Positions 1,240 through 63,288 of a stretch of 64,000 nt of DNA are shown here, piece by piece. Location of the stretch: assembly GCA_049646645.1 (NCBI GenBank), contig JBARWF010000051.1:18227-82226 (forward strand). The letters are read 5' to 3'. Position numbers and translations under genes: made by a program. The notes beneath the pieces are model-generated. The model was not told the origin of the DNA and ran no database searches. It saw only the letters and a program-made list of their open reading frames with translations. Positions within the stretch are counted from its first letter, which is position 1. Every line of letters begins with the position of its first letter. Origin of the DNA: Thermomicrobiales bacterium. Lineage in GTDB: Bacteria; Chloroflexota; Chloroflexia; Thermomicrobiales; UBA6265.

Positions 1240-2160
1240 GTGACGCGATATCTCGTCGGACTCGACTTTGGAGGAACAAAGGGAGCGATCGGGGTCGCGG
1301 CCGTCGGGAGCGACGAGCTGGCTCACTCCGAGCGGTTCGACGTTCCGCCGGGCGCGGATCGGGATCTGGTCTACACCACCGCCATTCAGCACGCCCGATC
1401 GCTTCCCGTTGCGGCGACCGGGGAGATCGCCGGCATTGGGGTCAGCTTTGGCGGTCATGTCGATGTGACACGCGGGGTCATCCTGCGCTCCTTGCATGTG
1501 CCGGGGTGGGACGATTTTCCGATTCGTGACCGGTTGAGCGCGCAGTTTCACGCGCCGGTCGCGATCGAGAACGATGCGAATGCCGGTGCGCTGGGGGAGT
1601 GGCGCTTTGGGGCCGGGCGCGGACGGCGGGACATGCTCTACGTCACGGTCAGCACCGGGGTCGGCGGTGGCTGGATCCTCGACGATCGCCTCATGCGTGG
1701 CTGCGATGGGATGGCCGGTGAGATAGGGCACATGCTGGTGCGGCCCGATGGACCCGTCTGTTCTTGCGGGCGGAGAGGATGCCTGGAGGCGGTGGCATCC
1801 GGCCGGGCGATTGCCCGCAGGGCCGCCGAGGAGGCGCCGGGGACGTGGACCGCGAAACAGGTCGCAGCCGAAGCTGTCCGGGGCGTGGCGTGGGCCCAGC
1901 GGATCCTGAGCGAGGCCGCCGGGTATCTCGGCGCGGGGTTGGGTAACGCGATCTGCCTGATGAACCCACAGGTCATCGTGCTTGGCGGCGGCGTGACCGG
2001 CGCAGGAGAGGCGTACTGGGAGACGGTGCGACGTGCGGCGGCGGCGCGCGCATTGCCCGGCGTCACCGTCGATATCCTGCCGGCACGCCATGCCGATGAT
2101 GCGCCGCTCTACGGCGCGCTGGCGCTGGCCGAGCAGGCGATGACGCAACCCCCCTCCTGA
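1240..2160 (+). CDS. ROK-family sugar kinase (glucokinase-like)
   Basis: 306-aa ORF with a GTG start. LVGLDFGGTK phosphate-binding N-terminus and the CSCGRRGCLE ROK cysteine signature. Confidence 0.85.
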   Translation: MTRYLVGLDFGGTKGAIGVAAVGSDELAHSERFDVPPGADRDLVYTTAIQHARSLPVAATGEIAGIGVSFGGHVDVTRGVILRSLHVPGWDDFPIRDRLSAQFHAPVAIENDANAGALGEWRFGAGRGRRDMLYVTVSTGVGGGWILDDRLMRGCDGMAGEIGHMLVRPDGPVCSCGRRGCLEAVASGRAIARRAAEEAPGTWTAKQVAAEAVRGVAWAQRILSEAAGYLGAGLGNAICLMNPQVIVLGGGVTGAGEAYWETVRRAAAARALPGVTVDILPARHADDAPLYGALALAEQAMTQPPS

Positions 2161-2190
2161 GTGGCGATGGGAAGGACGGCTAGCGTGAGC

Positions 2191-2219
2191 GCACCGGCGA
2201 CGCGTTATATCGCCGGTGC
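2191..2219. terminator. Hairpin between convergent genes (possible bidirectional terminator)
   Basis: Perfect 10-bp inverted repeat GCACCGGCGA / TCGCCGGTGC with a 9-nt loop, between the ROK stop (2160) and the beta-propeller stop (2230). No clear U-tract. Confidence 0.5.
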
Positions 2220-2229
2220 GGGACGGCGG

Positions 2230-3960
2230 TCAGGGGGTGGCCGCTGCCGTCAGGGCGCCGAGATGGCACGACCGGAGCTCATTCCCGGTCAGGAGAATCA
2301 CGAGCGCGTCCCCATCCAGGCTCACATCAACGATCTCCCCGTTGCCTTCGGGCGCGGGGAGTTCCCACCAGGCGGGTTCGTCGGGGCGCTTGAACCAGAG
2401 GCCGTCGTGCGTGAGCGCAACCAGTCCCGATGCCGATGCCGCCAGGCGCCGGATCGTGCCGTTCCCGGGCTGGGTCCGTATCCAGCGACCATCGCCGTCC
2501 CTGAGCATGATGGCGTTGCCGAGTGAGATGGCGAGGGGGTCCGCCAGCGTCGAGATCTCAGGGGAACTGGAGGACGCTTCGCTGCCCCGTTCCCACGTTT
2601 CTCCATCATCGAAGGATCGCCAGAGGATCGCCGAGTGCCGCGTCACATCGAACGTCACCGCGAGCAGCGGCGAGCCCCCGGCCTCGGATGGAGCTTGCAG
2701 CGCGATAATCGGGAAGACGCCAAACGGTGGCCGCAGCGGTGACCAGGTATGCCCGCGGTCGCGCGTGATAACCACACTCGTTCCATCGACCGTCGCCATC
2801 CATCCAGCCCCGTCGGCCCGGATGGTCAGCCAGTCGCCGCCGGGCACGCGAGACAATTGGTGCCAAGTTTCCCCGCGATCGGTGGAGGCGAAGACGCCAT
2901 CCGGCGTTCCGGCAATCAGCTCGCCATCCCACCCCTCGGCAAAGATGCGGGTCGGCACGGGGCAGTTTTCGAGCGTGATCCATCCCTCGGTCGGGGTCCA
3001 GCGTTGGGGGCGGGAGAGCACACCGCTCACGAAGATCGCGTCCCCGAGCGTGTGGATCCGGCAGTAATCGGCCAGTGGGGGGGAACCGAGTGATTGCCAT
3101 TGCTCCAGCGCCGGTGCTCCGGTGCATTCGAGCACACCGTCGGTTGTCCCCGCAAAGAGAGTATCTCCGTGGATGGCAACGGTCAGGACGCTGTGATCCC
3201 CGCACGGAGTCCATGTCGTCCCATCGAGAGAGCACAGGGTGCCGTGTTCGACGGTCCCGATCAGGAGGGAGCCGTTGGCGAGCATGGCGAACGCCTGGAC
3301 CTCCGCGCCCGCGGGCAACGGCCCCAGCGCATCCCAGTGGTCGCCCGCATCGGGGGAGCGCCACACGATGCCGTCCATCCCGAGCGCCATCATCACATCA
3401 TCACGCTGGTCCAGGAATGCGAACGAACGGTCGATGAGCAACTGCCACGATCGGCCTTCGTTGGTTGAACGATAGAGGCCGGCCGGGGTGGTTGCGTAGA
3501 CCGTCTTGTCCTGTGGCCACAGGAGACCGGAAACCTCGGTCGCCTGCATCCCGAATTGAGCCGAGGTCCACGTGATGCCGCCGTCGGTGCTGCGCAACAC
3601 GCCGTCGCCGGCCGTGCCCGCCAGGATGGTCTGATCACGGTCATACGCGGGGGAGCAGGCAAGGCTCAGGATCGTGAGATGCTCGATACCCTGTGCCGGA
3701 TGCCACGTCGTGCCGCCATCGGCCGATCGGGCGATCCCGCCAGTGCCGGCCGCCAGGATGGTTGTTCCCGCCTTCTCGAGCGCCAGGACCGTGCGGAGGC
3801 CGGGCTCGATCCGATACTGGTTCCAGATACCGCTTGGTTCCCGGCGCGCGAGTGTGCCGATGCCGCCCGCCCACAGACCCTCGGGGGTCGGAAGGAGGGA
3901 GAGGATCGGCGATTCCGGCGATGCCTGGGGGAGTAGTGACCATTCGAGGGATGAAGACAT
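2230..3960 (-). CDS. BNR/Asp-box repeat beta-propeller protein (Ycf48 / sortilin-VPS10-like)
   Basis: Seven SxDxGxTW-type Asp-boxes: SADGGTTWH, STDGGITWT, STNEGRSWQ, SPDAGDHWD, STDRGETWH, TRDRGHTWS, SFDDGETWE. The ORF runs to 4080; start placed at ATG 3960 (MSSSLEW), which avoids an 80-nt overlap with the upstream gene. Confidence 0.75.
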   Translation of the reverse strand: MSSSLEWSLLPQASPESPILSLLPTPEGLWAGGIGTLARREPSGIWNQYRIEPGLRTVLALEKAGTTILAAGTGGIARSADGGTTWHPAQGIEHLTILSLACSPAYDRDQTILAGTAGDGVLRSTDGGITWTSAQFGMQATEVSGLLWPQDKTVYATTPAGLYRSTNEGRSWQLLIDRSFAFLDQRDDVMMALGMDGIVWRSPDAGDHWDALGPLPAGAEVQAFAMLANGSLLIGTVEHGTLCSLDGTTWTPCGDHSVLTVAIHGDTLFAGTTDGVLECTGAPALEQWQSLGSPPLADYCRIHTLGDAIFVSGVLSRPQRWTPTEGWITLENCPVPTRIFAEGWDGELIAGTPDGVFASTDRGETWHQLSRVPGGDWLTIRADGAGWMATVDGTSVVITRDRGHTWSPLRPPFGVFPIIALQAPSEAGGSPLLAVTFDVTRHSAILWRSFDDGETWERGSEASSSSPEISTLADPLAISLGNAIMLRDGDGRWIRTQPGNGTIRRLAASASGLVALTHDGLWFKRPDEPAWWELPAPEGNGEIVDVSLDGDALVILLTGNELRSCHLGALTAAATP

Positions 3961-4000
3961 GATGGTGATAGCGCTCCAGATGAGATGAGAGGAAGCACGG

Positions 4001-5620
4001 TCAGGGGGCGGTGCTGACTGGCCGCCGTCGTTCATGCGGCAGGATGGCAACCCCGGTGGTGATGAGCTCCGCGACCGCACTGGTTGCCGTGCGCAGGGCG
4101 CCCCGCAGGACGGACAGACTGTCGGACATGGCGAGTTCGGCGGCGGGAATCAGGGTGCCGGCCGCGGCATCAAAAGCGAGCCCTCCCTCGCTGTCCATCA
4201 CCCGGTGCAAGGCGACCTCTGGGCTGGATGTCCCGCCGTTCGTCACGAGTTGCCGGAATGGAGCCTCCAGCCCGCACGCCATGATCTCCGCGCCGAAGCG
4301 CTGATCGCTCAGATCCAGTGATGTCTGGTGCTGGTCGACAGCGGGACGGCACGCGAGAAGGGCCAGCCCGCCGCCCGGAACGGTTCCCGCCCCGATGATC
4401 TCAGGCAGGATCCGCAATGCCCGCTCGACGTGGCGACGTTTCTCGTCACGTTCGGCATCGGTCAACCCCCCAAGCTGGAGAATGCCGCTTCCGTTGACAA
4501 GGCTCGCGAGCCGCTCTCGCAACCTGAGCGTCTGGTCCCGATCCGTGGTGCGCATGAGTTTGGTGCGGATGTCGGCCATGCGCTCCTGAATCGCGGCCTG
4601 ATCTCCACCGCCGTCGAGGATGACCATGCCATCGCGTTTGAGGACGATCTGGCGAGCCGTTCCCAGCCACGATGCCTGGAGTGCAACCGGTGGGTAGCCG
4701 CGAGTCGTCGAGATTAGGTCAGCCCCGGTCGCAAGGGCGATATCGGTGAGTACCTGATGTCGCTCGGCTCCGGTCGTTGCAGGAGATACCACGTAGGCGG
4801 CGATCGTTCCCCGCGCGACGTTAAGGTTCAGGAGGTCCTGGGCCTTGCTGCCGAGCTTCGCCCCGACGATGACAAGTGGGCGCCGGTTCCGGCCCTCCGC
4901 GATGGTTTCGAACGTCCGTAACATGTCATTGGCCTCAATCACCTCGTCATCGGCAACGAGCACGCTCGGGGAATCCAGGACCAGGGAGATGTTTCCTGCG
5001 GGATGTGACGGAGAGGGGGCACTTTTCCAGTACCTGCCATCGACATAAAGTCTGTCGAGGTGGGGCTGCGCCATCATCTCGAGCCGAATCCCGGCCTCCT
5101 GGCCGAGGACATCAAGCATTTCGGCGAGAACCTCGCTGATATCGGGATAGGACAGGATCGAGGCGATGAGCTGCGCGGTCGAGGCGGAATCGATCGGCTG
5201 GCGCTGGGCCTCAAGGGCGTCGATGACCACCGGCAATGTCGATTCCATGCCGAGCCTGAGCATCAGGGGATCGATTCCGGCGGCGATCAGGGTATTGGCT
5301 CGTTCAACCATCGCGCGTCCGATCACCGCGGCAGTGGCCCCGCCATCCCCGAATTCCTCATGGACCCGCCACACCATATGACGGAGTTGCATCGCGCCGG
5401 TGTTGCGGAGTCGGTCCGTGATTTCCACGACGCGGCGAACGACGATCCCTGACGTTGACAGCATTTCGACGGAATTGCCGTTGGCATGCCAGATCGGACC
5501 GCTGCTGGGTCCCAGCGTCACGGCGAGGACTGCCGCGAGATCACAAAACCCCTGTGACATTTCCTGCAAGGCCCTTGGCGCAAAGGCAATACCGCCGTGA
5601 TGGTCAAGATGATTGCGCAT
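4001..5620 (-). CDS. Divergent GroEL/Cpn60-family chaperonin paralog
   Basis: 539-aa ORF collinear by eye with GroEL (TLGPSSG, GDGGATAAV, VPGGGLAL, DSLSVLRGALRTA). No C-terminal GGM tail and no adjacent groES. Confidence 0.8.
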   Translation of the reverse strand: MRNHLDHHGGIAFAPRALQEMSQGFCDLAAVLAVTLGPSSGPIWHANGNSVEMLSTSGIVVRRVVEITDRLRNTGAMQLRHMVWRVHEEFGDGGATAAVIGRAMVERANTLIAAGIDPLMLRLGMESTLPVVIDALEAQRQPIDSASTAQLIASILSYPDISEVLAEMLDVLGQEAGIRLEMMAQPHLDRLYVDGRYWKSAPSPSHPAGNISLVLDSPSVLVADDEVIEANDMLRTFETIAEGRNRRPLVIVGAKLGSKAQDLLNLNVARGTIAAYVVSPATTGAERHQVLTDIALATGADLISTTRGYPPVALQASWLGTARQIVLKRDGMVILDGGGDQAAIQERMADIRTKLMRTTDRDQTLRLRERLASLVNGSGILQLGGLTDAERDEKRRHVERALRILPEIIGAGTVPGGGLALLACRPAVDQHQTSLDLSDQRFGAEIMACGLEAPFRQLVTNGGTSSPEVALHRVMDSEGGLAFDAAAGTLIPAAELAMSDSLSVLRGALRTATSAVAELITTGVAILPHERRRPVSTAP

Positions 5621-6064
5621 CGTTCATCCCGTTACCGATCGTACGTCTGAAGCGAGGACAGAGGATATCGTAGCCGATGGCCGAGAAGATGAACATAGCG
5701 CGCCAACCTGTAGCAAGGGCAACTCATGATGGGCTTGAGCCCTCGTAATCGGCCTTCAATTTGAGGCAGAAGGCAACGAAAGCTCTCTGCTTTTCGCGTT
5801 CGATGAGCAAAGAGCGGATTCGAACGTCCTTCTTCGAAGCTGACCAGGTCAGCAGGCCCCGGCTTCCGACGAGGATGACGGCATAGTTCTGAGAGGATAC
5901 CTAGGCATTGGACGAGCGCGGCCTGTATCGGTCTCGACTGGTATGCTGCGAAGCGAATGTACGGGATTTTCTTCTTCCATGATGCGGCGGAGCTTACTAC
6001 CGCAGATTCCCCGGTCCCGGCCCCGAGGACACCGCGGACCGTGGCAAGGAGCGGGTAACTGGAC

Positions 6065-6904
6065 ATGGTGAGCAGCAGGAACGACGGCGCGGTATTGATC
6101 GGCGCCTCATCCAGAAGTGACTAGGATCTCTTCCACCCACCAGGCACCAAATCGGCCGACGAGCTCCCTTTCTACGCCCGGCACTTCCGATCGTCGAGGT
6201 CAACACCACCTACTGCCGCATTCCCGCCACCAAATTGGTCCAGGGCTGGGTCGAGCGCATGCTGGACTGCCTCGTCTTCGACGTGATGCCACCATGTGAG
6301 CTGACGAGCACGCCCGAGACGCCGCGGGGGGAGGCGACGGAACCGGACGCCGATGTGGCAAGCGCCTTCGCCGAGGCGATCTCCCCCCCTGGTGGACGCC
6401 GGCAAGCTCGGCGCCATCACCTTCCAGTTCCCGCCCTCGTAACGCAACACCGCGGAGCATCAGGCGTACCTGCGGCTGCTGCCCGAGCTCCTCCCGGACC
6501 TGCCGCTGGCCGTGGAGTTCCGGCGGCGCGACTGGCTGAACCCCGAGCATGCGGACGACACCCTGGCGCTGCTGGCGGAGGCGGGCCTGAGCTACACGAT
6601 GGCCGACGAGCCGCAGCGGGGAACGGGCAGTGTGCCCCCGATGTATGGGGTGACCAATCCCAAGCTGGCGATCGTCCGCTTTCACGGGCGCAATGCCGTC
6701 CGCTGGTACCGTTTCTCAGGATCGAGCAAGGACCGTTTCGACTGGGACTACACGCCCCAGGAGTTGGGGGAGTGGCTGCCGAAGCTGCGGCAGGCCCAAT
6801 CCGAGGCCGAGCGGGTCCATGTCTTCTTCAACACCAACAAGGACGACCAGGGACCAAGCAACACGACTTTGCTGATGGAGCAGCTCGGCCTGTCACGTCC
6901 ATAG
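6065..6904 (+). pseudogene. DUF72 (UPF0759) family gene, disrupted
   Basis: A full-length ~280-codon DUF72 reading can be rebuilt (VLIGASS.., LPFYARHF/PIVEVNTTY.., GKLGAITFQFPPS, LAVEFRRRDW, VRFHGRN.., VFFNTN). This requires reading through TAG 6122-6124 and TAA 6440-6442, and correcting a -1 shift near 6187 and a +1 shift in the C7 run 6383-6389. Confidence 0.8.
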
Positions 6905-6963
6905 CGACTATTCCCACGCCCAACTTTTGATGGCCCGCGCCGTCATTCATAGCGCTCTACGCT

Positions 6964-8115
6964 TCACGACCGGGTCATGATCGCCCCGTCCCGTCGCTCC
7001 CAACCGGGCTGGAACAGGCGCAGAAAATGGCGGTCGGCATAGGGGTATTTGCTCGCCTCTTCATGGTGGAGCGTGACTCCAAATCCCGGACCATCGGGGA
7101 CCTCGATGTAGCCATCGACGATTGCGACCGACCCGCTCAACACCTCGCGACTCCACGGCACAAGGAAGTCATCGAAGCATTCCTGAATCAGCATGTTGGG
7201 CAGGGTGGCACAGACATGCGTGTTGATCACCGTCGTGAGCGGACTCTGGGCGTTATGGGGAGCAACGAAGGCCTCGTAGGCGTCCGCCAGCGCGGCCGCC
7301 TTGACGAGCCCAGTGACGCCACCACAGTTGAGGATCTCGGGCTGGATGACGTCGATCACCCGGGTTTCCAGGAGCTGGGCAAACTCAGACGGGCGCTTCA
7401 GACGCTCGCCGGCCACGACGCGCACCGGGATCGCTCTCGCCACTTCGGCGGTGGACGCCGCTTCGGTCGACATCACCGGCGTTTCAAACCACATCGGCCG
7501 ATAGTCGGCGATGGCGCGCCCCACCTCGATCGCCGTCGCTACCGAGAAGCGGTCATGTCCCTCGATTAGGAGATCGACCCCATCGCCGACAGCATCCCGG
7601 ACCGCACCGATGATCGCGAGCGAAAGATCGAGATCCTGACGCTCGATAAAACGATAGGCGTTGCCAAAGGGGTCGAACTTGAGCGCCGTGTAGCCCATTC
7701 CCGCGACCTCGGCCGCCCGCTCGGCGAAGAAGTGAGGATCCCGCGGCCCCTGATACCAGCCGTTGGCGTAGGCGCGGATTCTTGGGCGCAGCGTGCCTCC
7801 CAGCAGCTGCCAGACCGGCACGTTGAGAGACTTGCCGAGAATATCCCAGCATGCCATCTCGATGCCGGACATGGCGGAGTTGGTGTGCAGGAAGATCCCC
7901 TTGTAGAGGCTGTCCCAGATCGCGCCGATGTTGCGCGGATCCTGTCCGAGGATGAGCGGCTTCATCTCGTGAACGGCGGCCTCGGACGGGCGTGTGCTCA
8001 GGCCGCTTGTGGCTTCCCCCAGCCCGGTGATCCCCTCGTCGGTCTCAACCTCGACGAAGAGCCAGTTCTTCCAAGGGTTACCGACGACCGTGGTCTTGAT
8101 ATCAGTAATCTTCAT
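6964..8115 (-). CDS. Enolase-superfamily sugar-acid dehydratase (mandelate racemase/muconate lactonizing family, galactonate/mannonate dehydratase-like)
   Basis: 383-aa ORF. MKITDIKTTVVGNPWKNWLFVEVETDEGITGLGEA N-terminus typical of the D-galactonate dehydratase family. Its ATG overlaps the upstream stop (ATGA). Confidence 0.9.
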   Translation of the reverse strand: MKITDIKTTVVGNPWKNWLFVEVETDEGITGLGEATSGLSTRPSEAAVHEMKPLILGQDPRNIGAIWDSLYKGIFLHTNSAMSGIEMACWDILGKSLNVPVWQLLGGTLRPRIRAYANGWYQGPRDPHFFAERAAEVAGMGYTALKFDPFGNAYRFIERQDLDLSLAIIGAVRDAVGDGVDLLIEGHDRFSVATAIEVGRAIADYRPMWFETPVMSTEAASTAEVARAIPVRVVAGERLKRPSEFAQLLETRVIDVIQPEILNCGGVTGLVKAAALADAYEAFVAPHNAQSPLTTVINTHVCATLPNMLIQECFDDFLVPWSREVLSGSVAIVDGYIEVPDGPGFGVTLHHEEASKYPYADRHFLRLFQPGWERRDGAIMTRS

Positions 8116-9659
8116 GTTCGCTGCCCTTGTGTTGTCTCTGCGCCCTCTCCGGTCGGAGAGCGGTCACTGTCGTCCGTTGCCGCTGCGGTGAGCCGAACCC
8201 GCATCACCCCCGGCTCCAGGAGAAAGAGCGGCGACCCTGCCGCTTCCGGTCGCTCTCGCCGTACCGGGTGGTGCAGACGCCAGGAGTCACCGTCGAACTC
8301 GCCGAACTCGGCCGCCTCGACTGGGCGGGGGCGCCCGTCGGGCCGCGAGCTTCGGAAGCGGGCACTGAAGCCGCTGCCAATCAGCAAGAACTCGTTGTCT
8401 CCCTCCTGCACAATCATGCCTCGCGCCGCGCCGTGACGATCGTGATACGTCACGACCACGTCACATCCTTCCGCCGCCCAGGCTGTGCCCGTCTCAGTGG
8501 CCTCCTGCACGAAGGTGAAGAGCCTGGGCGTTCCCTGTGCCTTGGCAATCGGCGCCAGCGCCCGGCCGATAGCGACATATGAGTCCCGTAATCAGAACGC
8601 CTGCGGACCCCACTCCCCGCCGACGACATCCACGAGGGGTGGTGCAAATCGGTCTGGATGAGGTGAGTCAATCGACCAGGGGTCGAAGCCGATCGCCCCG
8701 AACTGGCCTAGGGCGTAGTAGACGTTGCGTTCGGCTCGCCCGGCAGGATCGCTGCTGTGCTCAGCAATGTAGAGTGCGCGGTTGGGGCCGCCGTAAATCG
8801 CGCAGAGGCGCTGAAAATCGCGGTACCCGGCACGGTAGATATCCGGAGCGACAAAATCCACATACTGGAGCTGCTCCTGGACAAGCGCAAGGACCTCCGG
8901 CACCGCGCCACCCGCCGGATAGTCCTCGCCCGGGCGCCCGCCGACCTCCGGAGAGAGCCAGACGTTGATGTAGAGGGGAAGCGGATAGACGGACCTCGCC
9001 TCGGCCGCCAGCCGGTCGATATATCCGGCGATCATCGCGGCGCTGAAGGCTTCAGCCGCGTGCGGGCCGTGGCGCGTCTCCCAGCCCTCGGCCACGTAGC
9101 GCGCAGAGCACGCGTCGCAGTAGCAGCGGTCGCTACCGAGCAGCCCCGGCTCGTTCTCCACCTGCACCATGATCACCGTGTGGTCCGTGTCGGTGTTGCG
9201 CAGGTGGGTCATCAGCGCCTTCAGGGCGTCGCGGTCACGTTCCCACGTGGTGGTGGCTTCGGGACAGAGACTGACGAGCGGCTGGCCGTCACGGTCACGA
9301 GCGGGCGGATACGTCTCCGGATGCTCGCGGATGTATGCCGGAGCATAAAAGGCGCAGGCGTTCTTCCAGGTGGCAAACCAGAGCAGCACCAGTCGCAGGT
9401 CATGGGTGCGCGCCTGATGAATCCTCTCGTCGACCATAGTGAAATCGAACGTGCCCGGTTCTGGCTCCACCTCTCGCCAGTAGACCGGCAGGGCGGCGGT
9501 GTTCGCGCCCATCCGCTTTGCCTCCGGGAACAGGGGATTCATCGCCTGGGGGGTGAAGCAGCTATCGCAGTCCCACTGCAGTCCGAGGATCAGGAACGGT
9601 CGGTCGTCGACGAGGAGGCGAGCTTGGCCATCGTCATAGATCAGGGTCGGGAGGCTCAC
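8112..9659 (-). pseudogene. Clan GH-A glycosidase (GH35/DUF5597-type beta-galactosidase-like) with one in-frame TGA
   Basis: ORFs 8592..9860 and 8112..8510 share a frame (offset 480 nt). The only interruption is TGA at 8592-8594 (..GGEWGPQAF*LRDSYVAIGRALAPIAK..). Catalytic VENEPG motif present. GTG start at 9659 overlaps the upstream stop (GTGA). Confidence 0.75.
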
Positions 9660-11023
9660 GCGATCATACTCCTGCCGGCCCGAGCAGACCCGAGGGCATG
9701 ATCGGCGTAGCCTGGAGAGCTCAGTATAGCGTCCATCGTTTCGATGGTCTGCTCCAGGCTCTGGGTGCGGTGGTCGGAAAGCCCGATCTGCGACAGGTAG
9801 CGCGCATCGCCCGTCCGGTACGCGGCCAGCAGGCGTTCCATCCGCAGCCAGGCCGGCCACATCGCCCCCAGCATGATCGATTCGGGCAGGGGATCGACGG
9901 TGATCGGCCGGATACCGCTGCCGTCAACGACGGCCGGTACTTCGACGACAACATTCTCCGGGATCCCGGGCAACGCTCCCCGGTTCGGCACATTAACTAG
10001 GAACTGGCCCCGCTGATCCGTGGCCAGGGCCGTCATCAGGGGGACCATCTGCTCCCCGCTCATCTGCGGCGGGAAGACATCGCTCACCCGCTGGTGAGGA
10101 TCACGCGCGACGTCGTGCATCGCGCTGAGCTTCTGGTTGAGCCTGTCGAGGTAGACCGCCCATCCCTCGGCGGAATCGAAGCCACCCAGCGGCCCCCACC
10201 AGCGCTGCTTGGTCTCCCGGTCACGGTGATACCACCACGTCTCCGCCCAGAGCGCGCGTGACGCGTCGCCGATCGGCAGCAGGCCGTATCGGTGATACAT
10301 GTCGATCGCGGCCGGTGACATCTGGGTCTCGCTAAAATGGGGATTTCAACGCTGCCAGTAGCGCTCGGCGTCCTGTGCGATCCAGGCATCGAGGAGCGGG
10401 TATCCATTCTGGCCATTTACCCGGAACGTGGTCAGCCAGACGATGTGGTTGAAGCCGACCGATTCCAGCGTGGCGCTGCCAAGGTCGAACCCCAGCACTT
10501 CTGCCATCTCCCGGTAGCCGCCGAATGGGCCGTGGCACAGCCCGACAATCTTGATGTCGCTTTCGCGTGTCATGAGCGTACACCCCTCGAAGACGGGGTT
10601 GGACGATTGAATGAGCCAGGCATCGGGGCACAGCTCTTCCATATCCCGGACCACACTCAGCATCAGGTCGAACTGATTCGGCGCCGTCAGGTGCAACCCG
10701 CGGTAGTACCCGGCCCGTTCGCCGAGATCGCGTTCCGCTTCCTCCTGCGGATGTCCACCTGCCAGCGCGGTATTGATCACGAAGTCCGCATCTCGCAGTG
10801 CTGCCCGCCGGTCCGTCGTCTGCTCGATCTTGAGGTCTGCGCCGAGCTCATCGGCGTAACGACGGGCGAGGGTATGCACGATGTCGAGCCGCTCCGCGTC
10901 GATGTCCATCAGCGCGATCGTGCTGCCGTGCAGGGCGCTGGTCAGACAGAGGTCACGGACCAGACCCAACGAGAACTGGGCGCTGCCGGCGCCGATGACT
11001 GCCAGCCGAATTGATGTCGTCAT
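9656..11023 (-). pseudogene. GH4-family glycosidase paralog with one in-frame TGA
   Basis: ORFs 10346..11218 and 9656..10321 share a frame. The junction reads YWQR*NPHFSETQMSPAAIDMY, against YWATPVTRFSDTQLSRAAVDMY in the intact paralog 12812..14296. TGA at 10346-10348. IGAGSAQFS NAD motif, SNPV and GLCHG motifs present. ATG 11023 overlaps the GH2 stop (ATGA). Confidence 0.8.
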
Positions 11024-12822
11024 GCGAATTGCTCCTCCGTGTGGGCACCAATGGTCGCTGGCTGCGCGGTGAAGAGCTTGGTTACGGCGTCCAGGCATGC
11101 GTGCTTCGGCACCCTCGTCGCGCTGACCACGCCGTAATGACCGATCGGATAGGAGCGAACCCGGTTCGGATGCATCGGGTAGTCCTGCCAGCACCAGAGG
11201 AGCGCGCCCACTATCCACGGGCGCTCGGCGAATGTCTCGGCATGCGAGCGGATGGTTGCGGCGTAGCTTTCCTCACTCCAGGGCAATGCGCCGTGATGCC
11301 CGGGAAGTCCGATCCCTCCGAACTCGGTGATCACAATCGGCTTGTCGGGATAACGCCGATGCAGCGCGTCCAGGTGGCCTCCAAGCGCTGACTGGGCATG
11401 AGGGAGATCTTCCAATGTACGCACCGGAGGGTTGGTGTTGAGGCTGCCCTCGTATTCGTTGAGACAGAGCAGATCGTCGTCCTCAATCGCTGCATCGTTG
11501 CCGGTCTGCCAGACGTGATAGAGCATGACGTGTGTGACCAGCCGCGTCGTATCCAGCTCGCGGACGCGATGGATCAGCTCGCGGTTCGTCTGGTCAACTA
11601 ATGGGATCCCGCCCCCGGTCTCGTTACTGACACTCCAGATCACGACACAGGTTCGCGTGCGGTTTCGACGCACCATCTCCCCCACCTGTTGCAAGGCGGC
11701 GTCTACAGGCAGCGGCTCATCCTGTGCTGGCGTTGCCCGCCCCCAGCCCCAGAGAGGAATCTCATCCATCACCATGAGGCCGAGTCGATCGCAGGTCTCA
11801 TAAAATCGATCGTGCTGCGGGTAGTGGGAGGCGCGGACGAAATTGGCGCCGGTCTGCTTGATGGCTCGGAGATCGGCCTGCAACAACTCTTCGTCGTGGG
11901 CCCGGCCCGTCGTGGGGTAGTCCTCGTGCCGGTTGAAGCCGCGGAGCCGGATCGCTTCCCCGTTGAGCAGTAGGCGCGTGCCTGCGGTGACCAGGCGCCG
12001 GATCCCGATGTCGAACTGGCGCGTGTCGATGGTCTCGTCGTCGGACAGGGCAAGGTCGAGCGAATAGAGGCGGGGTTGATCGGGTGACCAGTAATCCACA
12101 GTGGCGAAGTCAAGCGTCGTCGTCCACGCCGTCTCCGCATGCGGCGGGATCTCCACCTCGAACGCGGCGTCCGTATCGTGCATTACCGCCCGCAACTGAC
12201 CGGTCCACTTCGTGTGACTCTCGTTGCGCAAAACCGCGTGCAGGGCGAGGCTGGCCGGGCCGGTACGGCCAGCGACCTTGGGTTGAGGATCGAGCGTCAC
12301 CTCGGCGATGTGCACGTGGGGCTGCCATTCGACAAAGACATCCCGATAGATTCCCCCATAGTTGACCCAACTCAGGCGGGTACCGGGGAGACGGTCCGGG
12401 AGCGAGCGGTTGTCCACGCGAACGACGAGGTGGTTGGGTGCTTCGGGCGCAAGCGCGTGATCGATCCGAAACTGAAAGGGCGTGAACCCGCCCTCGTGCG
12501 CGCCCAGATAGTGACCGTTCAGCCAGACGTCAGCGCGGTAGTTCACCCCATCGAAGTGGAGGTAAGGGATGCCTACGTCTCCGGTGAGCTCGAATGAGCG
12601 ACGGAACCAGACGTAGCCCTCAAAGCCGGCCAGCGCCGGGTCGGCCATATCCCAGCAGGCCGGGATCGTCATTTCCGGCCAGGTCGCATCGGGCGTATCC
12701 GGTGCCATCCAGCCCAGATGCTCACCGAACGCATGGGCGGGGGTGTCCGCAGCATAGCGCCACGAACCGTTCAGGCTCATTCGTGGTCTTGTCTCTCCAT
12801 GGGTGATCGGTTCAGTCTGCAA
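11020..12822 (-). CDS. GH2-family glycosidase (beta-galactosidase/beta-glucuronidase-like)
   Basis: 600-aa ORF. NFVRASHYPQ and WSVSNETG (acid/base NE) motifs and a GH2-like N-terminal sugar-binding region. Alternative start MSLNGSW at 12780. Confidence 0.9.
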   Translation of the reverse strand: MQTEPITHGETRPRMSLNGSWRYAADTPAHAFGEHLGWMAPDTPDATWPEMTIPACWDMADPALAGFEGYVWFRRSFELTGDVGIPYLHFDGVNYRADVWLNGHYLGAHEGGFTPFQFRIDHALAPEAPNHLVVRVDNRSLPDRLPGTRLSWVNYGGIYRDVFVEWQPHVHIAEVTLDPQPKVAGRTGPASLALHAVLRNESHTKWTGQLRAVMHDTDAAFEVEIPPHAETAWTTTLDFATVDYWSPDQPRLYSLDLALSDDETIDTRQFDIGIRRLVTAGTRLLLNGEAIRLRGFNRHEDYPTTGRAHDEELLQADLRAIKQTGANFVRASHYPQHDRFYETCDRLGLMVMDEIPLWGWGRATPAQDEPLPVDAALQQVGEMVRRNRTRTCVVIWSVSNETGGGIPLVDQTNRELIHRVRELDTTRLVTHVMLYHVWQTGNDAAIEDDDLLCLNEYEGSLNTNPPVRTLEDLPHAQSALGGHLDALHRRYPDKPIVITEFGGIGLPGHHGALPWSEESYAATIRSHAETFAERPWIVGALLWCWQDYPMHPNRVRSYPIGHYGVVSATRVPKHACLDAVTKLFTAQPATIGAHTEEQFA

Positions 12823-21204: not shown

Positions 21205-22880
21205 CCTCATTCGTCGGCCATCCCGCCCAATAGGTGGTGTAGTAGATAAACGGGGCGATCGTCTGGAGGGTGGGGATGATCGGCAGGTTCTTGAGAGAGA
21301 TATCCAGCGCCTGATTAAAGACCGCCTTGCTGCTGGGGTCATCGGGATTGACCGTGCCCAGCTGATCGATGACTGCGTCAAGCTCGGGGATCCGGGTTCG
21401 CGTCTGGTTCCCCTGGTTCGCGGCCGTTCCGACCGGCTGGTAGTTGCGGGAATGGAAGTCATCGTAGAGCTGCCCGGGGTCGAACTGCATGCCGCAGATC
21501 CACTGGCTGCTGAGGTCGGACTCGCCGAGCGCCATGGCGTCGCTCCAGCCGGATTCGGCCAGGCCCTTGACCTGGACATCGATGCCGACCTACTTCGCCT
21601 CCGCGGCAAAGCTCTCGCCGATCTTGTACTCGGGGAGGGTCGTGGAGGCGGGGGTGATGCAAGTCAACTGGAGGGGCTTGCCGTTTAGAATGCGAACGTC
21701 CCCCTTCTTGGTCGCACCGATCTGATCGAGCAACGCTTCCGCCTTTGCCGGGTCAAAGGAAAAATCGCATTTTGTCCATGATCTTGGCCGGCGCGCAGGT
21801 CTTCCAGCCTTCATCGTCGGCCCAAGGGAACGTCGCCGGACGGGATTGCGGTTGCCAGATCACGTCGGCCATCGTCAGCCGGTCCATCAGGTAGGACATG
21901 GCCCAGCGGCCCTCGGGTGTTGCAAGGAGACCGGACGGAGAATCCGCGTTGAGATAGAAGCCCGCGGACAGGGATCGGCAAACGACTGACGCACGTTGTC
22001 ACTGGTCTGGGACGCAACGACTTCCTGATTGAGAAAGTCGAAGGCGCCGGCATCGAGATTACCGGAGAGGAACTCCTGAACCGCGGAGTCGACCGGGGCC
22101 TTCCGGACATACATCACGTACCTGCGGCGGAGGGGCAAGCACCGCCTTGTTCCAGTAGTTGGGGCTCTTTCCCACAGGTAATAGAGCTTGGAAGACGAGG
22201 ATTCCTTCAGCGTGTAAGCCCCGGTGTAGACGGGCGGATTGAAGGTGAAGGTGCCCGGATCCTCGTTCTCCCAGATGTGTTCCGCCCGTCTACAGTGGGA
22301 AAAGAACCCCAACTGAGTGAAAACGGGGTATGGCGTTCGTCAGGGTGAAGAGGACGGTCTGGGAATCGAGCGCCGTCACGGAGGCGATATCTCGCTGCAC
22401 GGCCGCCGCTCCGTTCAACGCCGGATTCTGCAACAGCAGGTTCTGTGAGAAGACGATGTCATCGGCGGTATAGGGCTGCCCGTCATTCCAGGTCACCCCT
22501 GATTTTATCTTGACGGTGCATTCCGTGAAGCCGTCATTGTACGTGTAGGAGTCGCCGATCCAGGGGGTGACCTCGCCGTTCAGTAAGTTGGCGTAGAAGA
22601 GGCATTCCCGACAGACCTCCGGGAGCCCGTAAAATTAGAGTTCGCCATTGGGAATAAACGGATTGAAGCTATCCCAGATATTGGTGGGGTCGGCCTCGAT
22701 GATCACGGTTTGTTCGCGCGGCGTCGGGATATTGGCCCCGTTCTGGTCCAGCATCGGTGGCGGGACGGAGGTCTCCGGGCTGGCGGCGGCCATCCGTTGC
22801 ATGCGCGCCAGCAATCCTGTCATGCCGATGGTTGCGCCCGCGACAAGTGAGCGGCGGGAGGTTCCGAGGTCTGTGGCCAT
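21182..22880 (-). pseudogene. Family-5 (peptide/nickel type) ABC substrate-binding protein, heavily disrupted
   Basis: Tat-signal N-terminus (MATDLGTSRRSLVAGATIG; AGGAG upstream of ATG 22880). Homologous pieces are spread over ORFs 22635..22964, 22290..22496, 21887..22312, 21590..21814 and 21182..21535. In-frame TAA at 22635 and TAG at 21590; frameshifts near 22300, about 21900 and about 21765. The C-terminus is deleted. Confidence 0.8.
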
Positions 22881-23706
22881 GGGAGGGTGCTCCTGGCTGC
22901 GCAAAGGAAGATGGCATTGGTGTGTGTACACCGCCACCGCATGTCTTTCGATAGCGTGTGGCAAGCGGTAAGGTGTCCCATGGTGTGCAAGCGAAGCCAG
23001 AGAGCACGGCGCTCGCCCTCAGCATCACGCACAAGCGACGGTCCCCATGGATCGTCGCTTGTGCTCTATCTCTTTGTTTGGCGTGGTGACTATCAGCCGA
23101 TCTGCTTGGATTGCTTGTCCTCGATCGCCGATCGCAGCTTGGCATTAGAATGAATTTCGGCCTTGACCTCCAAGCAGCCGGTCGCCGCAACTGCCTCTCG
23201 TTGACCGCGATTGGCCTTGTACAAGTCTGACGGGGAGGTTGGCCTTCGGGGATTCCGGCTGGGCCAACGCTGTCTCGCCGTCGCAGTCGCTTCAGTCACG
23301 GGAGAGAACAAGTGTGGGAAGTTGGCCAGGAGGTGAGTGGCCTTGTCATCAGTCACTTCGTAGTCGCCCTATCGCGCAAGCGGACATCCTCGCGCGAAAG
23401 AGGCTCCAAAGTTGCACGCGCGTGATGGAACCATACTGAGAAGATGAACCAGTTTGTTCCATTGCAAATTACGCGCAGGGAGCCGCACACGGTGAAGGCG
23501 GCCTTGGTCCCCCTATCGGTCGTTTGCGCGGAGTTCGCGTCAACTGTGACGATTATTGGTATTGGCGGCACCGGGTTCGTCCTTGGCATAGCCTGACGTC
23601 GCCCAATGACGGTTGCCTGCATAGCGCCGACGCAGGTGACCCCCCAGATTCGGGCCCGCATGTGCTGAGCATGAGTTCGAGTAAGGCGATGCTGGTCCGC
23701 TGCTAG

Positions 23707-23779
23707 TACCCCAGGCAGGACTCGAACCTGCGACCTACCGCTTAGAAGGCGGGCGCTCTCTCCGCTGAGCTACTGGGGC
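23707..23779 (-). tRNA. tRNA-Arg (anticodon TCT)
   Basis: Reverse complement GCCCCAGTAGCTCAGCGGAGAGAGCGCCCGCCTTCTAAGCGGTAGGTCGCAGGTTCGAGTCCTGCCTGGGGTA folds as a cloverleaf. Anticodon loop CTTCTAA, T-loop GGTTCGAGTCC. CCA not encoded. Confidence 0.9.
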
Positions 23780-39204: not shown

Positions 39205-39360
39205 AGCAACATAGCCTTCGGGGATTGGTGAGCATGCCGAGTTATGGCATGCAAGTCCTGACCGGCGGTACAGCCCGCAAGCGCGAGTGGGAGCACGAGC
39301 GCACGATCCGGTGAGACTCCGGAGCCGACGGTAAAGTCCGGATGGGAGAAGGTGTTCATT
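39205..39360 (+). promoter_or_regulatory. FMN riboswitch (RFN element) aptamer
   Basis: CCTTCGGGG..GGTG..AAGTCCTGACCGGCGGTACAGCCCGCAAGCG...GATCCGGTGAGACTCCGGAGCCGACGGTAAAGTCCGGATGGGAGAAGG matches the conserved RFN core block for block (compare B. subtilis ribD leader ..CCGACCGGCGGTA..AGCCCG..GCCGACAGTGAAAGTCTGGATGGGAGAAGG). P1 pairs CCTTC with GAAGG. Confidence 0.9.
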
Positions 39361-47606: not shown

Positions 47607-47968
47607 GGGGATGCCTGGATTCGACAGGGTCAATCGTCAGGCCATTGCACGTCGAGAGCGCCCGAGGCCTCGTAAAAAACGGGCAATACAGTAGCTGCGA
47701 AACCACAGCTCGCTTACGCTGCCTAAGTCTTAGACCTCTAGTCAGCGCGTCCAGCCGGACCTTCCTTCACCGGGACCGGGTCTGGGCGTCACCAAGGTGA
47801 AGTGCGACGACCTAGTCCGCTGGAGCGCGGTCGTCCAAGGCAGTCCAGCTCACCGGCCAGGAACCCTGTCGATGGGGGTCTTGCCCGGCACATAAATCAT
47901 CGACTAAACGTGTAGTAGATGTCCGACCGTTGGTTCTGGACGGGGGTTCGATTCCCCCCATCTCCACA
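47607..47968 (+). ncRNA. ssrA: tmRNA (SsrA)
   Basis: 5' GGGGATGCCTGGATTCGACAGGG and 3' GGACGGGGGTTCGATTCCCCCCATCTCCA form the tRNA-like domain. Internal tag ORF 47682-47726: GNTVAAKPQLAYAA*. Terminal CCA not encoded. Confidence 0.9.
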
Positions 47969-47977
47969 AATGCATGC

Positions 47978-63211: not shown

Positions 63212-63288
63212 GGAGGCGTGGTGTAGTGGCCTAACATGCAGCCCTGTCAAGGCTGAGACCGCGGGTTCGAATCCCGTCGCTTCCGCCA
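63212..63288 (+). tRNA. tRNA-Asp (anticodon GTC)
   Basis: GGAGGCGTGGTGTAGTGG...CAGCCCTGTCAAGGCTG...GGGTTCGAATCCCGTCGCTTCCGCCA forms a cloverleaf with anticodon loop CTGTCAA. CCA is encoded. Confidence 0.9.

Follow-up and report, generated by a model that had tools for sequence, protein, structure and literature searches.

Why should a gene for a GroEL-like protein, with no groES beside it, be followed on the same strand by a gene for a BNR/Asp-box beta-propeller? The question is raised by a gene pair in a 64-kb stretch of a Thermomicrobiales metagenome-assembled genome (MAG), and by the window we mean this whole stretch; both genes lie on its minus strand according to open reading frame (ORF) calling. 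The original prediction, which was made from the letters alone, read the first product as a specialised, or perhaps ATPase-impaired, chaperonin-like scaffold tied to the propeller, and this hedged reading is supported as far as sequence data go. The GroEL-like protein falls in a large and old subfamily of GroEL that has no name, spans the phylum and is paired with a propeller as its putatively dedicated partner. The coordinates of all the features are collected in Table 1.

The GroEL-like protein has the Cpn60 fold that had been assigned to its 539 residues. Pfam PF00118 (Cpn60_TCP1) matched it at 92 bits, a phmmer search of the PDB matched its residues 13-525 with GroEL chains (about 200-216 bits), and its AlphaFold model showed the three-domain fold with a predicted local distance difference test score (pLDDT) of 84.3. 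The identity to E. coli GroEL is around 28% from end to end. The NCBIfam GroEL models also spanned its full length, at 255-269 bits, and all these scores were under the respective cut-offs of 352-582: the cut-offs of the TIGR02348/NF009487 type were missed with 255 bits against 582.1, and the best model gave 269 bits against 352. The models of the chlamydial variants reached 74.4 bits (NF038370, GroEL2) and 92.9 bits (NF038369, GroEL3) against a cut-off of 600, and the thermosome/CCT models gave local matches only, of 15-23 bits over some 60 residues around the GDG loop. In NCBI, a 519-aa version of the protein is named 'TCP-1/cpn60 chaperonin family protein'.

Regarding the individual residues, we aligned the protein with MAFFT to E. 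coli GroEL from NC_000913, and the differences that had been listed by eye reappeared in this alignment. The phosphate loop GDGTTTATV reads GDGGATAAV (T89G, T90A and T93A, with D87 and T91 kept), the catalytic helix VEDAL reads VERAL, which means D398R, and the apical segment described before as unrecognisable is YVVSPATTGAERH where E. coli has AVKAPGFGDRRK. The C-terminal tail is LPHERRRPVSTAP, without the GGM repeats of E. coli, and GGG414-416 is present in both proteins. Furthermore, Thr takes the place of D52, the other catalytic aspartate, and Asp that of N479, and neither K34 nor K51 is kept. The protein also lacks the DRGYLSPYFIN segment, in which Y199, Y203 and F204 lie, and it has the changes L259Q and V263N in helix I. 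T30-L31-G32-P33 (TLGP) and D495 are kept. The ATP site is non-canonical, as had been suspected, and going by these residues the binding of a nucleotide is plausible and the chemistry that follows it is uncertain.

The AlphaFold model fitted GroES-bound subunits (4v4o, 1aon_A, 8wuc and 3wvl) with template modelling (TM) scores of 0.76-0.81 and apo subunits with scores of 0.54-0.57. This better fit of a predicted model to the GroES-bound, open subunits hints, though weakly, that the resting state is altered.

The same changes run through the relatives of the protein. A word-indexed search returned 22 of them, and the 150 best representatives in a profile search of 1.84 billion representatives scored 437-773 bits. 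The family comprises at least about 140 clusters at 50% identity, nearly all of them from Chloroflexota, and the databases label its members 'chaperonin GroEL' or 'TCP-1/cpn60 family protein'. The score of the family hidden Markov model (HMM) was rejected as a membership criterion, because E. coli GroEL itself obtains 415 bits against 437-800 for family members. Instead, membership was set by signature residues together with a neighbour-joining tree, in which all the canonical GroELs fall in one clade apart from the 162 aligned members (bootstrap 76/100).

Among these 162 members, position 398 is R in 101, Q in 21, K in 17 and D in 5, so that one of R, Q and K is found in 139, and among the 84 members encoded in the loci described below Asp was found in none and Arg in 58. 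The substitutions T90A (146 of the 162), T93A (142) and N479D (148) are widespread, D87 (159), G414-416 (155-162) and D495 (160) are retained, and dozens of positions are invariant across the at least 140 clusters. R197, the residue of the allosteric inter-subunit salt bridge, is lost in most members, and no GGM tail was found in any family member. Among the ring-contact residues, A109 is kept in 132 members, R452 in 102 and K105, as R or K, in 135, and partial hydrophobicity is kept across the family at positions 204, 237 and 259. Since the pocket is strongly conserved and the catalytic Asp is systematically replaced, we infer that nucleotide binding has been retained in the family and is still under selection, and that the chemistry has changed. 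The family evolves much faster than canonical GroEL.

The six long representatives, namely P0143 (1078 aa), P0145 (1081 aa), P0172, P0174, P0200 and P0262, consist of two Cpn60 units in tandem or of partial duplications. The N-terminal unit of P0143 and P0145 is canonical (GDGTTTATV), and in the neighbour-joining tree P0145 clusters by its C-terminal unit with the divergent family. These tandem representatives may be true fusions or merged gene calls; as Rosetta-stone fusions the six were rejected, because they hold no propeller domain.

A protein of such high divergence might come from a decaying paralogue, that is, from a pseudogene in progress, and the window does hold several other genes that seem to be split (those of a DUF72 protein, a family 4 glycoside hydrolase and a solute-binding protein). 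We consider this extremely improbable, because the ORF is intact and has the length of its homologues, and because selection has left its mark on it. Compared with the locus L002, which is 93% identical, the GroEL-like gene has a ratio of non-synonymous to synonymous substitution rates (dN/dS) of 0.21 and the propeller gene one of 0.19. These ratios of about 0.2 mean that both genes are real and under purifying selection and, together with the invariant positions of the family, they effectively refute the idea of a pseudogene.

In the same comparison (positions 2230-5620 of the window with 611-4001 of L002) dS was 0.17 for the GroEL-like gene versus 0.49 for the propeller gene, which is a gap of about three-fold between adjacent genes at similar dN/dS. 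Recombination within the operon or differing codon constraints are possible causes.

The lack of a groES, which had been claimed for the DNA upstream of the GroEL-like gene, holds for the whole window and for nearly all the related loci. A tblastn search with E. coli GroES over the 64 kb gave nothing; the best match (E=0.11, at 22506-22586) was rejected because it falls in the split solute-binding-protein gene. The non-coding DNA of about 480 nt upstream of the GroEL-like gene holds no GroES-like ORF and no controlling inverted repeat of chaperone expression (CIRCE), and groES was not found by tblastn/phmmer in 88 of 89 related loci. Neither was a CIRCE found in the window within 3 mismatches, nor 5' of the family gene in about 88 loci with up to 4 mismatches, and control of the GroEL-like gene by CIRCE and HrcA was rejected on these grounds. 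The sole groES lies in L076, a Caldilineaceae MAG, where it stands downstream of the pair in a canonical CIRCE-groES-groEL operon. The perfect CIRCE of this operon is the only one in the 89 loci and served as an internal positive control for the scan. This gene order means that the divergent family coexists with a housekeeping groESL.

The coexistence in L076 also suits a more ordinary explanation, by which the protein is an accessory GroEL that uses the canonical GroES of its genome in trans and the adjacency of the propeller is meaningless. Orphan groEL genes are common (a groEL with no groES next to it occurs in 770 of 4,861 genomes; PMC5406781), the databases say simply 'chaperonin GroEL', and the 415 bits of E. 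coli GroEL on the family HMM are near the 437 of the lowest members. Nevertheless, we regard this explanation as very unlikely, given that the protein has neither the catalytic Asp nor the GroES-contact residues nor the GGM tail, that its gene lacks CIRCE and that the protein scores below every curated GroEL cut-off. The conservation of the pairing, with its 4-nt gene overlap in many loci, speaks against it too.

In the window itself, the propeller gene lies 3' of the GroEL-like gene on the same strand and encodes 576 aa, as had been stated; the spacer was put at 41 nt before and is 40 nt. It contains a GGAG 13 nt before the ATG of the propeller gene. An alternative GTG start at 4080 would give a propeller protein of 616 aa, whose gene overlaps the GroEL-like gene, but we prefer the ATG start because the homologues P0024 and P0025 are exactly 576 aa long. 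A scan of positions 1900-6600 for terminators found no terminator-like site, the spacer included, and the lack of such a site between the genes fits co-transcription of the pair. A scan of the same region with the sigma-70 consensus, including the upstream non-coding DNA, found no match, and the Rfam scan found no RNA element near the pair.

In order to know how far the pairing is conserved, the species genomes of GTDB were scanned with the peptide patterns GDG[GTA]ATAAV and AM[QLF][LVM]RH[ML][VL]W, taken from a 10-sequence alignment. At least 197 matching stretches were confirmed, a number in which some genes are possibly counted twice because there were two patterns, and 80 loci were taken. 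Chloroflexota is the label of 76 of them (Anaerolineae, Caldilineaceae, Roseiflexaceae, Chloroflexia, Ardenticatenaceae and Thermomicrobiales), and the other four are two Deinococcota MAGs (L064 and L071), an Acidimicrobiales MAG (L082, chromosome OZ244195.1) and one 'uncultured bacterium'. Horizontal transfer or mis-binning could explain the pair outside Chloroflexota in L064, L071 and L082.

All the loci were scanned with custom HMMs, and 76 of them were informative. In 66 of these 76 the propeller ORF lies directly downstream on the same strand, in two it is 1.4-4.9 kb away and in eight it was not found in the locus. The adjacency holds down to about 25-30% identity between the GroEL-like proteins. 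Furthermore, metagenome contigs with GroEL-like relatives of 28-93% identity carried a BNR/Sortilin-Vps10 gene on every informative contig, directly 3' of the GroEL-like gene in five of them, and none of these contigs carried a Cpn10 gene. A search that started from the propeller orthologues found Cpn60 directly 5' of the propeller gene in L008 and L009, and 4.9 kb 5' in L010. Among the exceptions, a gene for a Zn-dependent dehydrogenase stands 3' of the GroEL-like gene in L026 and L058 and a gene similar to family 4 glycoside hydrolases in L050, and in L085, a locus in which no propeller was found, the next ORFs are permease-like and lie on the opposite strand.

The genes around the pair are not conserved. 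The strands of the immediate neighbours are mixed (31 plus and 29 minus upstream, 36 plus and 23 minus downstream) and none of the Pfam families is shared by more than 4 of the 59 upstream or the 59 downstream neighbours, so a conserved third gene was not found. That the two genes stay together in 66 of 76 loci although the sequences have diverged deeply and the flanks turn over completely argues against an adjacency without meaning. It had been expected that the pairing would recur in related genomes if it were real, which is the case. The pairing had not been recognised as a described system, and our search of the full-text literature found no paper on a GroEL/BNR pairing. PADLOC gave no defence-system match for the GroEL-like protein or for either type of propeller.

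The commonest type of partner, with about 52 cases, is a single, Ycf48-like propeller of 240-335 aa; about 13 partners, like the one in the window, are double propellers and have 460-640 aa. In 48 loci with a single propeller the stop-to-start gap is mostly between -4 and +25 nt, with a 4-nt overlap in 10 of them. The profile of the single propellers has one full-length relative in the PDB, which is Ycf48 (E ~1e-9), the other matches being local matches to Asp-boxes, and 36 of 45 single-propeller partners matched Pfam PSII_BNR. The pairwise distances of the GroEL-like proteins and those of the propellers are strongly correlated over 44 pairs (r=0.95, Mantel p=0.001), with an equal mean divergence of 0.57. 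The two genes are thus inherited and diverge as a unit, which by itself is no proof of contact between the proteins.

In L035 two single-propeller ORFs stand in tandem behind the GroEL-like gene, and a third one lies further downstream. This arrangement suggests that the partners with a double propeller came about when a single-propeller gene was duplicated in tandem and the copies fused.

The propeller protein of the window is 100% identical to WBA63_05305 of NCBI, a 'hypothetical protein' from a Thermomicrobiales MAG, and Pfam gave Sortilin-Vps10 and BNR matches. The seven Asp-box motifs counted before were located at aa 79, 124, 165, 202, 359, 399 and 449, but the fold is not that of a single seven-bladed propeller: the AlphaFold model (pLDDT 88.6, predicted TM score 0.82, 53 strands) shows two propellers in tandem, with about 14 blades in all and an architecture similar to that of family 74 glycoside hydrolases (GH74). 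The protein matches the single-propeller profile at aa 53-173 and at aa 347-495. The protein is below the Ycf48 cut-offs (PSII_BNR 23.2 against 27, PRK13684 25.4 against 326), and NF045728 (F510_1955 family glycosylhydrolase) matched it with 114.4 bits in three local stretches, under the cut-off of 175. The best PDB matches of the model by Foldseek were the GH74 xyloglucanases 6p2m and 2cn2 (E 3e-20, TM ~0.56, 14% identity). No signal peptide was seen by eye, and no lipobox either; because no signal peptide was seen, the protein is probably cytosolic.

These similarities raise the possibility that the two genes share a carbohydrate pathway without any chaperone activity, with a GroEL-like protein that does not fold other proteins and a propeller that is a cytosolic glycan-binding or glycoside-hydrolase-like protein. 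The sub-threshold NF045728 match and the GH74-like fold point in this direction, as do the ROK, GFO/IDH/MocA, GH2, GH4 and GH42-like genes of the window, the rhamnosidase-like genes that adjoin the pair in L009 and L010 and the sugar genes around many loci. However, sugar genes are abundant in Chloroflexota generally and none of the flanking families is seen in more than 4 of the 59 loci. The two-propeller cleft of GH74 cannot be made by the single-propeller partners, the identity to GH74 is low, and the nucleotide pocket of the GroEL-like protein is conserved. In addition, we know of no non-folding catalytic role for the Cpn60 fold. We therefore consider a shared carbohydrate pathway to be unlikely.

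The explanation that we favour, and in which our confidence is evenly balanced, is that the pair is a self-contained operon of a GroEL-derived protein and a dedicated propeller, its physical partner, with the first acting as a holdase or assembly chaperone that cycles slowly or is latched by a nucleotide. The GroEL-like protein would retain the chaperonin fold and the nucleotide-binding pocket, would no longer run the GroES-driven, fast ATP-hydrolysing folding cycle and would stand outside the HrcA/CIRCE heat-shock regulon. The canonical cycle would have been abandoned because residue 398 is basic, D52 is not conserved, R197 is gone, and both the hydrophobic groove for GroES and substrate and the GGM tail have been weakened or lost. 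In its new role the protein would capture the co-translated propeller and keep it folded, assembled or stable, and it would thus be a bacterial group I counterpart of BBS6/10/12, which handle propeller proteins with CCT. ATPase impairment and dedication to the propeller are predicted here from sequence and gene order, and so are the physical contact, the reduced hydrolysis and the roles of chaperone and client. Koike-Takeshita et al. (2008, cited in PMC5143341) reportedly found that the D398A mutant of E. coli GroEL keeps ATP and GroES binding and hydrolyses ATP at a few percent of the wild type.

Several points weigh against this explanation. Arg398 could touch the gamma-phosphate, and hydrolysis would then be modified rather than abolished, and D52 is kept in 90 of the 162 members. 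The correlation of the two sets of distances can be explained by co-inheritance alone, and no fusion of a GroEL-like protein with a propeller occurs among the 150 best representatives. Around 10% of the family members have no propeller within about 5 kb, and the subclade of L079, L081, L086 and L090 (D52K, D398E) has a different downstream gene. The protein encoded by this gene is conserved, has 310-345 aa, its N-terminus contains LSLRLWRTIAEADIHDPIFRRVSQIQKP, it matched nothing in Pfam or PADLOC, and it may be an alternative partner. Finally, the tight translational coupling suggests near-equimolar synthesis, which fits a stable complex better than a catalytic chaperone with its client.

A stable complex is what the main rival explanation proposes. 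The propeller would be a cofactor that replaces GroES, a seven-bladed plug, lid or recruiting adaptor on a seven-fold ring, and the complex would act on other proteins or ligands. It accounts for the missing GroES and the degenerate GroES-binding residues, and for the kind of partner found most often, a single propeller of the Ycf48 type with seven blades and about 300 aa, whose only full-length PDB relative is an assembly factor. The translational coupling would reflect a stoichiometric complex, the equal evolution rates of the two proteins agree with it, and the inter-ring and ring residues A109, R452 and K105 are partly kept. Nevertheless, the ring is itself presumed from the sequence, and a propeller, with a diameter of about 45-50 Å, is smaller than the GroES dome and could only touch all seven subunits of a closed ring. 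The varying size of the partner (single, double, or two tandem genes as in L035) is awkward for a precise lid, and no other conserved client gene is linked to the pair. We consider the cofactor role rather unlikely, and the carbohydrate pathway and the ordinary accessory GroEL are less likely than either the holdase or assembly chaperone or the cofactor. A bolder form, which we put forward as a doubtful proposal, is a new two-component machine in which the GroEL-derived ring would have swapped GroES for a pseudo-seven-fold Asp-box propeller docked on or inside it, and Arg398 would make ATP a latch or switch and not a fast-cycling fuel.

How does the pair compare with known systems? With canonical GroEL/GroES (TIGR02348) it shares end-to-end homology, the three-domain fold, the pocket residues D87, T91, T30-P33, G414-416 and D495 and several ring-contact residues. 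It differs from them in D398R, D52T, the GDGGATAAV loop, the loss of R197 and of Y199/Y203/F204 and the absence of GGM, and also in that the gene has no groES or CIRCE and the fixed operon partner of the family is a propeller and not Cpn10. New functions are presumed for GroEL paralogues that lack a GGM tail (PMC5904260, PMC11978752), and where a genome has several chaperonins, at least one copy with GGM is retained (PMC11978752). The five phyla for which a review reports multiple chaperonins do not include Chloroflexi (PMC5904260). GroEL2 and GroEL3 of the chlamydiae have altered ATP and GroES regions (PMC1892554) and, like the protein described here, they are accessory, away from groES and not under heat-shock regulation. 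However, they belong to a different family by score and to another phylum, and no conserved operonic partner has been reported for them, against a BNR partner in about 87% of the loci here. For the orphan groEL genes and the paralogues without GGM, too, there is no report of a constant partner in the operon.

The nearest functional analogy of the pair is found in eukaryotes. BBS6/MKKS, BBS10 and BBS12 are fast-evolving chaperonin-like proteins with unusual substitutions in the catalytic site (PMC2846930). They resemble the family in being fast-evolving chaperonin derivatives with phosphate-binding and catalytic substitutions and, as is proposed for the family, a narrow set of clients that includes beta-propellers. 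According to Seo et al. in 2010, BBS6, BBS10 and BBS12 together with CCT are said to assemble the propeller-containing BBSome. They are of the eukaryotic group II lineage, are not derived from GroEL and have no operon; the analogy is functional only.

Regarding the propeller, the photosystem II assembly factor Ycf48/HCF136 (PDB 2xbg, 5ojp) aligns over its full length with the single-propeller partners, and both are seven-bladed Asp-box propellers. Unlike Ycf48, the propeller of the window is double, is below the cut-offs and shows no signal peptide or lipobox by eye, and the partners of the family occur in many non-phototrophic Chloroflexota. The GH74 xyloglucanases share with the window protein the tandem arrangement of two seven-bladed Asp-box propellers, but they have 700-780 aa, and most of the orthologous partners are single propellers. 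GH74 enzymes are secreted.

Outside the pair, the window contains three genes that seem to be broken. The N-terminal half of the DUF72 gene is scattered over other frames, with an in-frame stop, so that the gene is either a pseudogene or the victim of an assembly indel; the glycoside hydrolase gene is split between its two domains, and the solute-binding-protein gene looks fragmented. Several split genes in one window suggest indel errors of the MAG or real gene decay, and the GroEL-like and propeller ORFs are intact. The structured RNAs of the window are also given in Table 1.

Table 1. Features of the window and of the related loci mentioned in the text
Sequence	Feature	Position	Strand	Remarks
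Window	BNR/Asp-box propeller gene	2230..3960	-	576 aa from ATG
Window	Spacer between GroEL-like and BNR genes	3961..4000	-	40 nt, GGAG Shine-Dalgarno-like motif
Window	GroEL-like gene	4001..5620	-	539 aa, ATG start; three-domain Cpn60 fold
Window	Non-coding DNA 5' of GroEL-like gene	5621..6100	-	~480 nt
Window	DUF72 gene	6100-6904	+	Appears disrupted
Window	C-terminal part of DUF72 gene	6512-6904	+	130 aa, clean ORF with Pfam DUF72
Window	Family 4 glycoside hydrolase gene	9656-11218	-	Split
Window	C-terminal domain of the hydrolase	9656-10321	-
Window	N-terminal domain of the hydrolase	10346-11218	-
Window	Solute-binding-protein gene	~21887-22964	-	Looks fragmented
Window	tRNA-Arg(TCT)	23706-23779	-
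Window	Flavin mononucleotide (FMN) riboswitch	39210-39357	+
Window	Transfer-messenger RNA (tmRNA)	47607-47969	+	Tag peptide AKPQLAYAA
Window	tRNA-Asp(GTC)	63212-63288	+
L035	GroEL-like gene, two tandem single-propeller ORFs, third further downstream	7322-9242 and 11097-12188
L076	GroEL-like gene, propeller gene and CIRCE-groES-groEL operon	5821-10024
L076	CIRCE	8587-8613		Perfect
L076	groES	8654-8968
L076	Canonical groEL	from 9107
L079	Alternative downstream gene	7647-8582		Protein of 310-345 aa
L081	Alternative downstream gene	3878-4954		Protein of 310-345 aa
L086	Alternative downstream gene	7585-8616		Protein of 310-345 aa
L090	Alternative downstream gene	4065-5084		Protein of 310-345 aa

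GroEL is among the best-studied molecular machines, and its accessory paralogues are usually treated as minor, GroES-dependent variants. In the family described here the catalytic Asp has been replaced systematically, the GroES interface and the heat-shock control have been lost, and the gene has become part of a fixed two-gene unit across a phylum. If the two proteins form a complex, this would show how a general folding cage can turn into a dedicated and possibly GroES-free device, and it would be a bacterial parallel to the handling of propellers by CCT and the BBS chaperonins. It would also offer a natural experiment on the role of D398, and the annotation of at least about 100 genes would be corrected. 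Furthermore, if the reading of a ring with a docked propeller is true, Chloroflexota would have, besides groESL, another group I chaperonin system with a mechanism of its own.

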